NCBI GenBank assembly: GCA_016178585.1
Contig: JACOTA010000030.1
Span: forward strand, 5,776 to 69,775
DNA: 64,000 bases
Reading direction: 5' to 3'
Source: Nitrospirota bacterium
GTDB taxonomy: Bacteria; Nitrospirota; Nitrospiria; JACQBW01
A model generated the notes under the pieces. That model saw only the letters and a program-made list of their open reading frames with translations, was not told the DNA's origin and searched no databases. Shown here in pieces: positions 4,846-62,971 of this stretch. Numbering within the stretch: the first letter of the stretch is position 1; every line of letters begins with the position of its first letter. A program made the translations under genes and the position numbers.

Positions 4846-4988
4846 CCCTAAAACAGAGATAGAAAGTTGTCATTGCGAGCGAAGCGAAGCAATCTCGCCA
4901 TCTTGAGCCGAGATCGCCACGCACCCTACGGGTGCTCGCGATGACAGGAAAAACAAGGAGTTTCAAATCCTATCTCTGTTCTTGGGGG
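4846..4988 (+). repeat. Family-A structured miniature inverted-repeat element (reference copy) in the ftsQ-ftsA spacer
   Basis: Imperfect terminal inverted repeats (CCCTAAAACAGAGATAG ... CCTATCTCTGTTCTTGGGGG). Core GTCATTGCGAGC...GCTCGCGATGAC stem encloses two hairpins. About 93 percent identical (hand alignment) to the inverted copy at 40112-40254. Confidence 0.85.
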
Positions 4989-24466: not shown

Positions 24467-24604
24467 CCCAAGAACAGAGTTAGAAAGCTGTCATTGCGAA
24501 CAAAGTGAAGCAATCTCAAGACTTTACGATAAGATTGCCACGCACCCTTCGGTGCTCGCAATGACATGATTAATAAGTGGGTGCGAAGTCTATCGCTGGT
24601 CTTG
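24467..24604 (+). repeat. Family-A miniature repeat (subtype 2)
   Basis: The right 98 nt are identical to the copy at 62268-62405; the left end differs from that copy at 7 positions, and those same variants occur in the fragment at 1-40. Confidence 0.85.
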
Positions 24605-40111: not shown

Positions 40112-40254
40112 CCCCCAGGAACAGAGATAGGATTTGCAACTCCTTGTTTTGCCTGTCATCGCGAGCGCCCGCAGGGTGCGTGGCGATCTCGGTTCACGAT
40201 GGCGAGATTGCTTCGCTTCGCTCGCAATGACAACTTTCTATCTCTGTTCTTGGA
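40112..40254 (-). repeat. Family-A miniature repeat (subtype 1, inverted)
   Basis: Reverse complement aligns end to end with 4846-4988. The few differences fall in loops or keep the stems paired (GCACCC-GTA-GGGTGC versus GCGCCC-GCA-GGGTGC). Confidence 0.85.
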
Positions 40255-45550: not shown

Positions 45551-45626
45551 TGTCATTGCGAGGAGCGGAGCGACGAAGCAATCTATTGAAACCATTAGAG
45601 ATTGCTTCACTTCGTTCGCAATGACA
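45551..45626. repeat. Family-A core hairpin only (no AACAGAGATAG termini)
   Basis: TGTCATTGCGAGGAGCGGAGCGACGAAGCAATCT-loop-AGATTGCTTCACTTCGTTCGCAATGACA; flanked by 11-bp direct repeats CGTTTGTATTA at 45519 and 45645. Confidence 0.75.
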
Positions 45627-58563: not shown

Positions 58564-59331
58564 ATGATGAAACCTATTAAAAAACTCTTTCAACATCCCT
58601 TTGTGATCGCCCACCGGGGGGCGTCCGCCTACGTTCCTGAAAATACAATATCTGCCTTTGAAGCTGCCGTAAAGATGAAAGCGGATATGATCGAACTCGA
58701 CATTCAACTGACCTCAGACGGTTACTGGATTGTCATGCACGATTTATCCTTAAAACGAACCTGCGGACTCAGAAAGAAAGTTCAATCCGTTACGTTAGGC
58801 CAAATAAAAACGCTTGATGCCGGATCATGGTTCTCCCCTCAATTTGCCGGTGAAAAAGTTCCGACCCTGGAAGAACTTTTAACCTGGGCAAAACATAAAG
58901 TCAGGTTGAACCTTGAAATTAAAGGCAGAGTAAAGAAAAATTCCCCCGCCATCCCCTCCCTATTAAAAACTTTATCAAAACATGGGATGGGAAAAGAAAT
59001 TATCCTCTCTTCGTTTGATTGGAAGATCTTAAGACAGGTCAGGGCTTGTGATAAAAAAATAGCTTTGGGGCTCCTGGTTAACCGACAACCTCGATATCGT
59101 TATTTAAGAGAAGCAATTGATTTAAAAGCATTTTCTGTTAACTTACCCCCCCATAAATTGAAAAAAGGGGTCTCCGAAAAAATCCATCGTTTAAAAATGG
59201 TTGTCTGGGTCTACACCCTCAATTCTCTCCCTGAGGTTAACCAATACCTGAAAATGGGCATCGACGGGTTTTTTACCAATTTTCCGGACCTTCCGGTAAA
59301 AAAGAAAATATTGTTTAGCCGGTCAGGCTGA
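58564..59331 (+). CDS. Glycerophosphodiester phosphodiesterase
   Basis: 255 aa; AHRGASAYVPENT, ELDIQLTSDG, NLEIK motifs of the GDPD family. Confidence 0.9.
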   Translation: MMKPIKKLFQHPFVIAHRGASAYVPENTISAFEAAVKMKADMIELDIQLTSDGYWIVMHDLSLKRTCGLRKKVQSVTLGQIKTLDAGSWFSPQFAGEKVPTLEELLTWAKHKVRLNLEIKGRVKKNSPAIPSLLKTLSKHGMGKEIILSSFDWKILRQVRACDKKIALGLLVNRQPRYRYLREAIDLKAFSVNLPPHKLKKGVSEKIHRLKMVVWVYTLNSLPEVNQYLKMGIDGFFTNFPDLPVKKKILFSRSG

Positions 59332-59376: not shown

Positions 59377-60852
59377 ATGATTTCTTTCATGGTTATTAAA
59401 TCGACAACTTCCCCGGTTGAAGAACCTCCATCACTTTCCCCTGACCAAACCGATTTAAAAAATTTCTGTAAAACCGTTAAAGACGAACTCATTCGAAGTC
59501 ATATTCCCCTCTCCTGGCGTGTGTCTCCGGAACCTTACGGGCTTTCTTCCCGGGAAGTTGAAACCCTTCAAAGACTTGGCACATCCATTTTTCGATTTTA
59601 TAAAACCCAAAACAAGCTTTATTTTGAGAGCGTAAAAGGGACTCAACCCCCCTGGATCGCCTATTATCTTGACCTGGGAAAGCCCCAACAGATTGTGGAA
59701 TATGGGAGAATGAACCGGTTTAAGTCGAATCTTCCGGGAATTCTTCGACCCGATTTGATCCTGACGCCGGAAGGAATGATGATTTCCGAGTTGGATTCTG
59801 TTCCGGGCGGATTTGGTTTAATCCACCAGTTGAACACCTCTTATTCAAAACTGGGATATCCGGTGATCGGAGGTTCTGACGGGATGGTTTCCGGTTTTAA
59901 AAAAATGATCTTTAACCTAACCGGGTCATCCTCCGACTCTCCCCTGAATTTAGGCATTGTTGTTTCTGAAGAGTCAAGGGATTATCTTCCAGAAATGGCC
60001 GCTTTTTCTAAAGCATTAGACGAGCCCGGATTTTCCGCAAAGGTTTACCGGCCCGAGGAACTCACTTTTACAGAAGAAGCGATTTACCCCAGGGGAGGCG
60101 AGAAAGAAAGTGCCTTAACGGTTTTATACCGTTTTTTGGAGCTCTTTGATTACAAAAATATCCCAAAGATTGATCTTTTGCTCTATGCCACGAAAAAGGA
60201 AAAGGTCGTCACGACTCCCCCTCTAAAGGCATTCCTTGAAGAAAAAATGTGGTTTGCGCTTTTTCATCATCCCGCTCTTAAGTCCTATTGGGAGAAAGAG
60301 CTGGGAGAGGAAACTTTTCATTTTCTGAAGGAGTTCATCCCGAAAACATGGATTTTAGATCCCAGGGAACTTCCTCCCTATGGAATCATTCCTGATTTGA
60401 TTTTCCGCCAAAAACAGGTCTCTCAATGGACGGATCTTTTTATCGCAGGGCAAAAGGAGAGACGGTTTGTCATTAAACCGTCAGGATTCTCGGAATTGGC
60501 CTGGGGGGCCAGGGGGGTTAAAATCGGACATGATCTTTCAAGTCCGGAGTGGCAGGCGAGCCTGACGGGCGCGCTTTCTTCCTTTTATCAATCCCCTCAT
60601 ATCCTGCAGGAGTTTCATCAAGGGCAAAAGGAGGATTTTAACTATTGGGATGGCGGGACCGAATCGCTTGTTAAAATGAGTGGCCGGACCCGGGTTTGCC
60701 CTTATTACTTTGTCACGGGAGAGGAGGTCGTCCTGGGAGGGGCCCTGGCAACGATCTGTCCATCCGATAAAAAAATTATTCATGGGATGGCCGATGCCAT
60801 TATGGCGCCCTGCAGTATTAAAAAACAGGGGGGGAGAAATGAAACTCTATAG
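59377..60852 (+). CDS. Hypothetical 491-aa protein, putative circularly permuted ATP-grasp-type amide ligase
   Basis: Motif order resembles CP_ATPgrasp families. The Mg-loop-like ILRPDLILTPEGMMISELDSVPGG comes early, then LTVLYRF, then FVIKPSGFSELAWGARGVKIG and HILQEF late. The assignment is from memory of family patterns only. Confidence 0.45.
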   Translation: MISFMVIKSTTSPVEEPPSLSPDQTDLKNFCKTVKDELIRSHIPLSWRVSPEPYGLSSREVETLQRLGTSIFRFYKTQNKLYFESVKGTQPPWIAYYLDLGKPQQIVEYGRMNRFKSNLPGILRPDLILTPEGMMISELDSVPGGFGLIHQLNTSYSKLGYPVIGGSDGMVSGFKKMIFNLTGSSSDSPLNLGIVVSEESRDYLPEMAAFSKALDEPGFSAKVYRPEELTFTEEAIYPRGGEKESALTVLYRFLELFDYKNIPKIDLLLYATKKEKVVTTPPLKAFLEEKMWFALFHHPALKSYWEKELGEETFHFLKEFIPKTWILDPRELPPYGIIPDLIFRQKQVSQWTDLFIAGQKERRFVIKPSGFSELAWGARGVKIGHDLSSPEWQASLTGALSSFYQSPHILQEFHQGQKEDFNYWDGGTESLVKMSGRTRVCPYYFVTGEEVVLGGALATICPSDKKIIHGMADAIMAPCSIKKQGGRNETL

Positions 60853-61090
60853 TTTGGAATCATGTCCTTTCTGTGAGCTCGTCAGGGATAAGCTCGATGA
60901 GCTATCCCTGACCTGCGAAATAACAGAGGTCCCGGGCCCGCGACAGCTTCGGAAAGAAGTGTTTGAAGTTTCGGGACAATATCTTGTGCCGGTTTTTGTG
61001 GATGGAGATATCGTCCTGAATGACGAAGACAAAATTGTGAAATATCTTGAGGAAACTTACGGAAAAAACAAGAAAGAGAACATTGCCTAA
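60839..61090 (+). CDS. Glutaredoxin-like / GST-N-like small thioredoxin-fold protein
   Basis: 83 aa from MKLYSLESCPFCELV (CPFC redox motif), VPVFVDGD. SD GGGGGGAGAA precedes it. The ATG overlaps the upstream gene by 14 nt; the track ORF start at 60680 is spurious. Confidence 0.8.
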   Translation: MKLYSLESCPFCELVRDKLDELSLTCEITEVPGPRQLRKEVFEVSGQYLVPVFVDGDIVLNDEDKIVKYLEETYGKNKKENIA

Positions 61091-62185
61091 ATGATTCCTT
61101 CCGAACAATGGAAAAAAGACTTAAAAGAAAGCATTGAAACCATTGACGAATTGGCCCAACACTTTCCATTGCTTGAAAATAAAGAAGAACTGGAAAACCT
61201 GATCAAACAGTATCCCCTCCGAATCACCCCCTATTTTCTCAATTTAATGAAGGAAAAAGGGGATCCGATTATTAAACAGGTGCTTCCGATGTTAGAGGAA
61301 TCCAACTATTCGGCCTCGTGTATGGACGATCCGCTTGCCGAAGGGCATGACAGTCCCGTGCCTAATCTCGTGCACCGTTATCCTGACCGGGTACTCCTTT
61401 ATCTGACGAGCCAATGCCCGATTTACTGCCGTTTTTGCACCCGAAAAAGGTTTGTGGGCGAACCCGGGTTTATTCCCAGGGGAGTTCTTGAAGGGTGGGT
61501 CGATTACTTAACCGTCCATACGGAAGTCCGCGATATTATCATGTCGGGCGGAGACCCTCTTTTATTAACCGATGAATATCTTGAAAAGATCGTTAGGAGT
61601 TTAAGAGAAATTCCGCATATTGAGATTATCAGGATTGGAACCCGGGTGCCCGGAACACTCCCCTCCAGGATTACGGACAAACTCTGTCAGATGTTGAAAA
61701 AATATCATCCTTTTTACATGAACCTTCATTTTAACCATCCGGACGAAATTACTCCGGAAGTGAAAGAAGCCTGCGCAAAACTGGCGGATGCCGGAATTCC
61801 TTTAGGTGGACACACCGTGCTGTTAAGGGGAATTAATGATGATCCCGAGGTCATGAAATCTCTGATGCAAAAGCTTCTGGCGATTCGGGTAAAACCGTAC
61901 TACCTTTATCAGGCAGATTTAGTTTCGGGAACTGATCATTTCAGAACCTCCGTTGAAACGGGCCTTGAAATTATCAAAGCGCTGAGAGGCCATACTTCCG
62001 GAATGGCGGTTCCTCACTTTGTCATTGACGCGCCCGGCGGAGGAGGCAAAGTAGCGATCCTTCCGGAAGATGTCTTGATTCACAAAGACACAAACCAGGT
62101 CATCGTTAAAAATTACGAAAATAAAATTTTCATGTATCCTCAGCCGGAAGAGTCCAAAGTTTCGGCTCCCGCCGTCAATCCCTGA
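61091..62185 (+). CDS. KamA-family radical SAM lysine 2,3-aminomutase-like enzyme
   Basis: 364 aa; CPIYCRFCTRK (CxxxCxxC), SGGDPL, YQADLVSGTDHFR, VIDAPGGGGK (PLP-lysine region). The ATG directly follows the upstream TAA. Confidence 0.88.
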   Translation: MIPSEQWKKDLKESIETIDELAQHFPLLENKEELENLIKQYPLRITPYFLNLMKEKGDPIIKQVLPMLEESNYSASCMDDPLAEGHDSPVPNLVHRYPDRVLLYLTSQCPIYCRFCTRKRFVGEPGFIPRGVLEGWVDYLTVHTEVRDIIMSGGDPLLLTDEYLEKIVRSLREIPHIEIIRIGTRVPGTLPSRITDKLCQMLKKYHPFYMNLHFNHPDEITPEVKEACAKLADAGIPLGGHTVLLRGINDDPEVMKSLMQKLLAIRVKPYYLYQADLVSGTDHFRTSVETGLEIIKALRGHTSGMAVPHFVIDAPGGGGKVAILPEDVLIHKDTNQVIVKNYENKIFMYPQPEESKVSAPAVNP

Positions 62186-62267: not shown

Positions 62268-62405
62268 CCCTAAAACAGAGATAGAAAGTTGTCATTGCGA
62301 GCGAAGCGAAGCAATCTCAAGACTTTACGATAAGATTGCCACGCACCCTTCGGTGCTCGCAATGACATGATTAATAAGTGGGTGCGAAGTCTATCGCTGG
62401 TCTTG
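62268..62405 (+). repeat. Family-A miniature repeat (mosaic: subtype-1 left end, subtype-2 right half)
   Basis: The first 51 nt are identical to 4846-4896 and the last 98 nt are identical to 24507-24604. It ends 14 nt before the dcd start codon. Confidence 0.88.
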
Positions 62406-62419
62406 AAAAAGGAAGATTT

Positions 62420-62971
62420 ATGGTTAAAAGCGATCGATGGATCACAAAAATGTCACTTGAAAAAAAGATGATCACCCCGTTTGAGGGAAAGCAGGTGCGA
62501 AACGGGGTGATCTCTTTCGGGGTATCTTCCTATGGTTACGATTTAAGGGTCTCGGATGAATTTAAAATTTTTACGAATATCAATACGACCATCGTCGATC
62601 CCAAAACCTTTGACCCCAAATCGTTTGTCGATTTTAAAGGAGAGGTCTGCATCATTCCTCCCAATTCATTTGCCCTTGCACGCAGCGTTGAATACTTCAG
62701 AATTCCCAGAAATGTCATTACGATCTGCCTGGGAAAATCAACCTACGCCCGTTGCGGCATTATCACCAATGTCACCCCGTTTGAACCTGAATGGGAAGGC
62801 TATGTCACACTGGAAATTTCCAACACCACCCCCCTCCCGGCAAAAATCTATGCCAACGAAGGACTGGCGCAGGTTCTTTTCTTTGAAAGCGATGAAATGT
62901 GTGAGTTTTCCTATGCCGATAAAAAAGGGAAATATCAATCTCAAATCGGAGTGACCCTTCCCAAAATTTAG
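62420..62971 (+). CDS. dcd: dCTP deaminase
   Basis: Start MVKSDRWI (ATG 62420, SD AAGGAAG). [37 protein letters not shown] motifs. The track ORF start at 62378 lies inside the repeat. Confidence 0.93.

Follow-up and report, generated by a model that had tools for sequence, protein, structure and literature searches.

What does a bacterium make with beta-lysine when the enzyme that would produce it is encoded beside none of its familiar partners? The question is raised by a three-gene operon in a 64,000-nucleotide stretch of DNA from a Nitrospirota bacterium (contig JACOTA010000030.1, positions 5,776 to 69,775; the whole stretch is hereafter called the window, and position 1 is its first letter). 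On the plus strand, the gene X491 (59377..60852; 491 amino acids, stop TAG 60850-60852) is followed by Grx83 (60839..61090; 83 amino acids, MKLYSLESCPFC, start ATG 60839, stop TAA 61088-61090), which encodes a CPFC thioredoxin fold resembling glutaredoxin and the N-terminal domain of glutathione S-transferase (GST), and by KamA364 (61091..62185; 364 amino acids), which encodes a KamA-family radical S-adenosylmethionine (SAM) enzyme. The X491 and Grx83 reading frames overlap by 14 nt, spanning the X491 TAG, a GGGGGAG Shine-Dalgarno-like run lies ahead of the Grx83 start, and the KamA364 ATG abuts the Grx83 TAA with no gap. The three genes are translationally coupled in an arrangement far from chance, and the coordinates of the overlap and abutment described in an initial annotation of this DNA were confirmed.

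Known fates of beta-lysine are few, i.e., modification of elongation factor P (EF-P), the osmolyte acetyl-beta-lysine, lysine fermentation and some antibiotics. The partners of KamA in these routes were, as the initial annotation had pointed out, absent from the neighborhood: tblastn with an E. coli EF-P query found no efp in the 64-kb window or in 86 further loci, and no paralogue of lysyl-tRNA synthetase (LysRS), GNAT or lysine-fermentation gene was recognized in the window (open reading frame list by eye, plus Pfam on ambiguous frames). We propose instead, with a probability only slightly better than even (about 0.55), that the operon carries out an ATP-dependent amide ligation of beta-lysine in two steps with a redox helper. 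KamA364 would first turn free L-lysine into beta-lysine, and X491 would then phosphorylate a carboxylate with ATP-Mg and join the resulting acyl-phosphate to an amine; beta-lysine would be one of its two substrates, whether as the amine or as the carboxylate. The initial annotation had suggested a ligation of this kind; the predicted fold of X491 and the linkage of the genes both support it, and it is from gene linkage alone that we infer a direct use of beta-lysine by X491.

KamA364 contains the Pfam domains Radical_SAM and LAM_C and scored 318 bits against the KamA family model TIGR00238 (cutoff 199), but stayed under the cutoffs of the individual NCBIfam equivalogs: 460.6 bits for the top one, AblA/lysine 2,3-aminomutase (LAM; cutoff 525.4), 402 for glutamate 2,3-aminomutase (cutoff 650), 347 for arginine 2,3-aminomutase (cutoff 600) and 253 for EpmB (cutoff 369). 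Compared with the Clostridium LAM 2A5H (E 1e-118 to KamA364), all 44 X491-linked KamAs kept the cysteines C125/C129/C132 of the CxxxCxxC motif together with R134, D293 and D330, and 43 of them the lysine that binds pyridoxal phosphate (PLP), K337. From the LAM structure and a comparison with glutamate 2,3-aminomutase, we take R134 to be the binder of the lysine carboxylate and D293/D330 those of the epsilon-ammonium group. The carboxylate-binding Arg and both epsilon-ammonium-binding Asp being intact, the substrate is expected to be unmodified lysine, which places KamA first in the pathway. The zinc ligand C268, on the other hand, is replaced by Asp in 42 of the 44 enzymes, and the C-terminus of KamA364 has no Cys, i.e., the C-terminal Cys zinc motif is missing. 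These residues support well the prediction that KamA364 is a genuine radical-SAM/PLP lysine 2,3-aminomutase of a clade without the zinc site, acting on free lysine as a beta-lysine synthase. One KamA homologue of 563 amino acids (P0125) was considered as a fusion and rejected; part of its radical-SAM barrel is duplicated internally in tandem, a feature that may be real or an assembly artefact.

The second enzyme belongs to a large family that annotation pipelines have left nameless. Among 8000 candidates scored, 7949 were homologues of X491 (the total of ~8000 referring to sequences at 90% clustering), every one named hypothetical; a profile search placed 1676 clusters at 50% identity in the family at E ≤ 1e-3, and the profile search of all representatives gave the best 150 matches listed. 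The nearest relatives with an organism name come from Nitrospiria metagenome-assembled genomes (P0002, 78% identity, and the copy at locus L001), and identity across phyla is ~50%, with ~130 invariant columns in 30 diverse homologues. X491 had no Pfam or NCBIfam match at E ≤ 0.01, including to GSH_synth_ATP, GSP_synth and CP_ATPgrasp_1/2, and none among PDB sequences by phmmer or by hmmsearch with the family profile; hhalign of this profile against human glutathione synthetase (GS) returned a probability of 1.3%.

Structure prediction gave a different picture. An AlphaFold (AF2) model of X491 built on the alignment of 30 homologues reached a mean predicted local distance difference test (pLDDT) of 86.1 and a predicted template-modeling score (pTM) of 0.87, and Foldseek matched it to 46 PDB entries at E ≤ 1e-3, each of which is a glutathione synthetase, one of GspS/YgiC/YjfC, Cp1B or another putative ligase related to these. 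The top matches (8fbz, 2hgs, 3kal and 5oes; E 4e-16 to 2e-13, template-modeling score ~0.6) extended over nearly the full length; taken together, the glutathione synthetases of human, yeast and plants and the homoglutathione synthetase of soybean matched at E 4e-16 to 1e-12. The fungal ligase Cp1B (9cjn) matched at E 1.6e-13, and further matches included 3n6x, 2io8, 7uk6 and 7uka, with E. coli glutathionylspermidine synthetase (GspS), YgiC/YjfC and 3n6x at E 1e-11 to 1e-9. On the strength of this confident model, X491 is predicted to be a three-domain, circularly permuted ATP-grasp protein of the eukaryotic glutathione-synthetase type and, by function, an ATP-dependent carboxylate-amine ligase. 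The assignment is structural, as hhalign shows no profile-level similarity; the ATP-grasp fold suspected in the initial annotation was invisible to Pfam and was recovered by AF2 and Foldseek as the permuted glutathione-synthetase type. The motifs are consistent with this, since a circularly permuted fold of the eukaryotic type accounts for the permuted order already noted in the initial annotation, in which ELD (E138, D140) comes before IKPSGFSELAWGARGV (K367...) and ILQEF (Q411-E412). Residues R124, D126, E138, D140, K367 and Q411 were invariant in the 30 homologues. Among ATP-grasp folds, eukaryotic-type glutathione synthetase is reportedly the classic case of circular permutation.

A MAFFT alignment from sequence only, made with a human GS sequence identical to 2HGS, paired human R125/D127/E144/N146/K364/E399 with R124/D126/E138/D140/K367/E412 of X491, i.e., the R-x-D strand, the E-x-N/D Mg site, the K-P strand and the hinge Glu, while equivalents of human K305, K452 and E368 did not align. 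Glutathione and homoglutathione synthetases (2HGS, 8FBZ, 3KAL, 5OES) are the best structural matches of X491 and have the same permuted order, but share only ~13% identity with it and no profile signal, their gamma-Glu-Cys-binding residues are not mappable onto X491, and the genomic partner of X491 is an aminomutase rather than gshA. Homoglutathione synthetase adds a beta-amino acid, beta-alanine. The amine that GspS and YgiC/YjfC attach to the carboxylate of a peptide is a long-chain one, similar in its chemistry to the epsilon-amine of beta-lysine, whereas X491 scores under their Pfam thresholds and has no amidase domain. Entry 3N6X, deposited as a putative glutathionylspermidine synthase, is presumably of the CP_ATPgrasp_2 type, and the alpha-E/transglutaminase partners that we take to be typical of CP_ATPgrasp systems do not accompany X491. 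A close precedent is Cp1B of the E-64 pathway, which was once annotated as hypothetical because no sequence identity to characterized ATP-grasp enzymes could be detected; its structure resembles human glutathione synthetase, and it joins an amino acid to a carboxylate that is not itself an amino acid. Cp1B shares with X491 the hypothetical annotation and the GS-like structure; unlike X491, it is fungal, is encoded in a cluster with an epoxidase and an ANL ligase, and has no involvement with beta-lysine.

The distant relative P0379 has a weak GSP_synth match (E 6e-4) and is encoded at L084:3-2590 between a cut-off nucleotidyltransferase-like open reading frame (by eye) and a HAD-like hydrolase, with TrmB and thioredoxin/thioredoxin-reductase genes nearby; this differing context suggests other substrates for other branches of the family. 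Two candidate fusions (P0249, P0282) were rejected, their long N-terminal extensions being of low complexity with no Pfam match, as was the reading of X491 as part of a defence system, for which PADLOC gave no match.

The pairing of X491 with KamA is not a peculiarity of the window. The X491 profile scan provided 80 species-level loci, with neighborhoods read over 10 kb, and a second genome scan with a Bacillota X491 query gave essentially the same loci among the matches listed. KamA was immediately adjacent to X491 in 48 of the 80 loci, distributed over Nitrospirota, Nitrospinota, Bacillota, Chloroflexota and Armatimonadota; these include every Nitrospirota and Nitrospinota locus except those cut off just after X491, and the two genes also adjoin on an extra Anaerolineae contig (L086). 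Grx was found in 40 of the 80 loci, all within the 48 with KamA and never with X491 in its absence. Gene order varied, from X491-Grx-KamA and X491-KamA to X491-KamA-Grx (L080) and KamA-X491 (L082, where DUF1786 and a Ddl-like ATP-grasp gene precede the pair), and overlapping frames recurred, e.g., by 4 nt between X491 and Grx in L152 and by 8 and 1 nt in L153. The minimal conserved module is X491 with KamA alone, as seen in anaerobes. In a neighbor-joining tree, the linked KamAs of Nitrospirota and Nitrospinota formed one clade, while those of Bacillota, Chloroflexota and Armatimonadota fell in other parts, the Chloroflexota ones beside unlinked KamAs of Poribacteria. Because linked KamAs are spread over several subclades, the association does not reflect one inherited synteny block.

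Linkage is also not the only sign of association. Of the 22 Poribacteria assemblies in which X491 is unlinked, at least 11 encode a member of the KamA clade elsewhere (e.g., OY282374.1, OY762722.1, OZ241845.1, CAXXEU01 and CBDAUH01), as determined by a scan seeded with a Poribacteria KamA, so that in Poribacteria, the phylum covered by this same-assembly check, the pair co-occurs even when unlinked. Conservation of the trio, on which the initial annotation had staked its proposal, thus extends across phyla and KamA subclades, in varied order, and X491 and KamA also occur together where they are apart.

Evidence from the opposite direction came from a scan seeded with KamA, which yielded 79 new loci, 64 of them without X491; the Lys-type residues were kept in all 64 clade KamAs from the latter. 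In a comparison of 62 unlinked clade members, the equivalents of R134, D293 and D330 were as invariant as in the 44 linked KamAs. In 43 of these 64 loci, one or two Ddl-like ATP-grasp genes lie beside KamA, and the KamA clade therefore appears generally wired to ATP-grasp ligases. Most of the 43 display a tight four-gene operon of two Ddl-like genes, a small RimI-like GNAT and KamA in last position, as in L177:3421-7134 (4-nt overlaps, a GNAT of 161 amino acids and a zinc-less KamA of the Lys type) and in ~40 other loci among L155-L231, from Ignavibacteria and other Bacteroidota, Gemmatimonadota, Desulfuromonadales and other Desulfobacterota, Verrucomicrobiota, and Aminicenantes/Acidobacteriota. 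The two Ddl-like ligases score 201 and 165 against a Ddl cutoff of 243. This operon looks like a second, undescribed system for beta-lysine ligation. The KamA clade thus has two alternative sets of partners, of which X491, with or without Grx, forms one, and L082 is a hybrid of both.

As to what X491 would join to beta-lysine, an amino acid, gamma-Glu-Cys or beta-lysine itself are candidates, and since X491 and KamA alone make up the module in anaerobes, the partner should be a common metabolite. The product would most likely be a soluble small molecule, either dipeptide-like or an N-acyl-beta-lysine, such as a compatible solute or a thiol/polyamine-like conjugate. We favor a small molecule because the X491 and KamA genes of L059 overlap with an operon for an ABC-2 exporter and because the structural neighbors of X491 are all small-molecule ligases.

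The role of Grx83 is the least certain part of the proposal. Its Pfam matches are GST_N_3 (50.2 bits, 3e-13; cutoff 22) and Glutaredoxin (34.4 bits, 3e-8; cutoff 22.9), and it reaches no named NCBIfam Grx equivalog. Both cysteines of the C-x-x-C motif, mostly CPxC, are kept in all 41 aligned Grx sequences (the window and 40 orthologues), and the C-terminal half resembles the glutathione-site (G-site) motif of GST, VP...DG...L-x-E. The initial annotation had offered two roles for this protein, which fared differently: re-reduction of the radical-SAM cluster is chemically unlikely, because the redox potentials of dithiol glutaredoxins are far above that of the [4Fe-4S]2+/1+ couple, whereas action on a thiol substrate fits better, as does upkeep of the cluster. 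Grx83, with an occasional Nfu, most plausibly supports the Fe-S or thiol state of KamA; it probably keeps the oxygen-sensitive KamA or the ligase cysteines functional, or acts on a thiol of the product. The Nfu in question is an Fe-S carrier with a NifU C-terminal domain (83-87 amino acids), whose gene lies directly upstream of X491 in several Nitrospirota (L002, L003, L005, L152 and L153, e.g., at L152:6740-6991 and L153:2164-2427, ahead of X491-Grx-KamA) and is absent from the window. Some Grx orthologues of Nitrospira (L019, L021, L031, L032, L036, L043, L049, L054 and L057) bear a C-terminal extension of 30-40 amino acids that ends in a conserved acidic stretch and a single Cys (DD[DE]HPSCRIN, EEEFPSCSL, DDFPTCTL); this extension, which Grx83 of the window does not have, may be a mobile thiol tail. 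In one Nitrospirales locus, an open reading frame resembling a DNA methyltransferase (by eye; L035:1798-2625) occupies the Grx position between X491 and KamA.

Several observations weigh against a beta-lysine ligase. No sequence-profile method ties X491 to any ATP-grasp family, and the fold comes from one predicted model. In addition, 32 of the 80 X491 loci (~40%) have no KamA within 10 kb, namely 22 from Poribacteria, 5 from Latescibacterota, 2 from Eremiobacterota, 1 from Bacillota whose contig starts at X491 and 2 from Nitrospirota that are cut off after X491; L142, from Clostridiales, lacks KamA despite a synteny like that of L023. Finally, X491 is unusually conserved and lies amid housekeeping genes, which would also fit a macromolecular substrate.

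The absence of KamA from these loci is also an argument for the most probable rival, although we still consider it unlikely, i.e., that X491 is a GS-like ligase making a thiol peptide or another amide without beta-lysine, next to a separate KamA(+Grx) module. Besides the KamA-less loci and the L142/L023 pair, this is favored by the alignment, in which no column separates KamA-linked from unlinked X491, and by sulfur/thiol genes found repeatedly around X491 in loci without KamA or in other settings: a PP-loop ATPase with weak Asn_synthase/NAD_synthase/QueC matches (LarE-like by reading) in Latescibacterota, a class V aminotransferase in Eremiobacterota and a CoADR-rhodanese in L082. Against two separate modules speak the adjacency in five phyla through overlapping frames, varied gene order and different KamA subclades, the co-occurrence in the same genomes of Poribacteria, and the independent ties of the same KamA clade to other ATP-grasp ligases.

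The same sulfur genes, circumstantial as they are and located in other phyla, are the reason why a narrower version of beta-lysine ligation stays alive, although as a long shot: the trio might make and use a new beta-lysine-containing low-molecular-weight thiol, a glutathione analogue such as gamma-Glu-Cys-beta-Lys, comparable to homoglutathione with its beta-alanine. If so, Nitrospirota, Nitrospinota and allied phyla would rely on this thiol as their redox buffer, and Grx83 would be its dedicated redoxin.

Conservation, in turn, is one argument for X491 being a protein-modifying ligase that attaches beta-lysine to EF-P, to another translation component or to Grx as a carrier, which we think improbable. 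To our knowledge, EF-P modification is the only universal cellular role of beta-lysine besides osmolytes; RimK and LysX are examples of ATP-grasp enzymes with protein substrates, and the second KamA operon includes a RimI-like GNAT, in line with such a role, as are the very high conservation and housekeeping synteny of X491. Yet efp is missing from the window and the 86 loci, and KamA364 is AblA/LAM-like and not EpmB-like (461 versus 253 bits), so that the EpmB affiliation raised in the initial annotation as an alternative finds no support. The characterized structural neighbors of X491 all act on small molecules, an exporter is part of the L059 operon, and Grx is missing from 8 of the 48 X491-KamA operons and is therefore not an obligatory carrier. 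EpmA/EpmB do resemble the trio in combining a KamA-family enzyme with one that uses ATP to make a beta-lysyl amide, but EpmA is a LysRS paralogue working through an adenylate, and no epmA lies nearby.

The AblA/AblB pathway, a known route to osmolytes in bacteria, is likewise similar in that a lysine 2,3-aminomutase acts first and the beta-lysine is then capped by formation of an amide. It differs in that an acetyl-CoA-dependent GNAT adds the cap, where X491 would be an ATP-dependent ligase, and KamA364 falls short of the AblA cutoff and has no zinc site. That KamA364 is simply an ordinary AblA serving N-epsilon-acetyl-beta-lysine synthesis or lysine fermentation beside unrelated genes has little to recommend it, since AblA is its best NCBIfam match but one under the equivalog cutoff, no conserved GNAT cluster was found among the neighbors at the 80 loci with X491, and other loci preserve its translational coupling to X491 and Grx.

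In the literature searched, we found no description of the trio, of the X491 family or of the Ddl-Ddl-GNAT-KamA operon. Although the component superfamilies are known, neither the family of X491 ligases nor its association with a lysine aminomutase, nor the product that these imply, has been described there. This widespread, unannotated family, found in globally important nitrite oxidizers, sponge symbionts and other phyla, appears to give beta-lysine a further fate, and the second KamA operon suggests a broader hidden metabolism of beta-lysine amides. X491 is an unclaimed protein family for Pfam/InterPro, and X491 with KamA is a directly testable two-enzyme system. Models of Nitrospira and Nitrospina physiology would change if the product proved to be an osmolyte, a thiol or a modification of a translation factor.

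The operon sits in a housekeeping environment, in a window of 46% GC whose remaining genes include the dcw cell-wall cluster, the his operon, rpoD/dnaG, rho, prfA and a class II ribonucleotide reductase; across loci, the housekeeping neighbors of X491 are murG/lgt/leuS, def, dcd and serA. On the plus strand 45 nt upstream of X491 lies a glycerophosphodiester phosphodiesterase gene (58564..59331; Pfam GDPD 8e-48). GDPD also precedes X491 in L001, L017, L026, L153 and L154 and is thus a recurrent neighbor, although it is uncertain whether it belongs to the system. Downstream of KamA364, on the same strand, is the dCTP deaminase gene dcd (62378..62971; Pfam DCD 4e-36); dcd or a two-domain DCD gene follows KamA in 32 Nitrospirota loci and in L017, L152 and L153, which probably reflects conserved Nitrospirota synteny and not membership in the system. 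Matches resembling promoters and terminators around the operon occurred at chance level only.

Other neighbors were noted in individual lineages. In the Bacillota loci L142 and L023, X491 is flanked in the order murG(-), X491, lgt, leuS(-), with KamA between X491 and lgt only in L023; the upstream gene in L023 encodes a metallo-beta-lactamase domain with an N-terminus that is helix-turn-helix-like by eye. A gene for a protein with CxxCxxCC and LPG_synthase_C domains lies beside X491 and is transcribed divergently from it in 24 Nitrospiraceae loci (including L073:8261-9766, minus strand), and L152:5166-6606 likewise encodes such a protein. LPG_synthase_C is the C-terminal domain of phosphatidylglycerol lysyltransferase, a lysine-related aminoacyl-transferase domain of GNAT fold.

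Between the KamA stop and dcd, at 62290..62367 with no strand assigned, is a 78-nt palindromic element resembling repetitive extragenic palindromes (REPs), with 13-nt perfect inverted arms TGTCATTGCGAGC / GCTCGCAATGACA; it possibly marks the 3' boundary of the operon. The element belongs to a type of ~78-nt REP-like or miniature inverted-repeat transposable element (MITE)-like intergenic palindrome with arms GTCATTGCGAGC / GCTCGCAATGAC, for which arm matches in the window numbered 14 against 3.1 expected. The window contains at least 5 full copies, the others lying at ~4869-4945, 24490-24565, 40155-40231 and 45552-45625, and a partial copy near 8-19.

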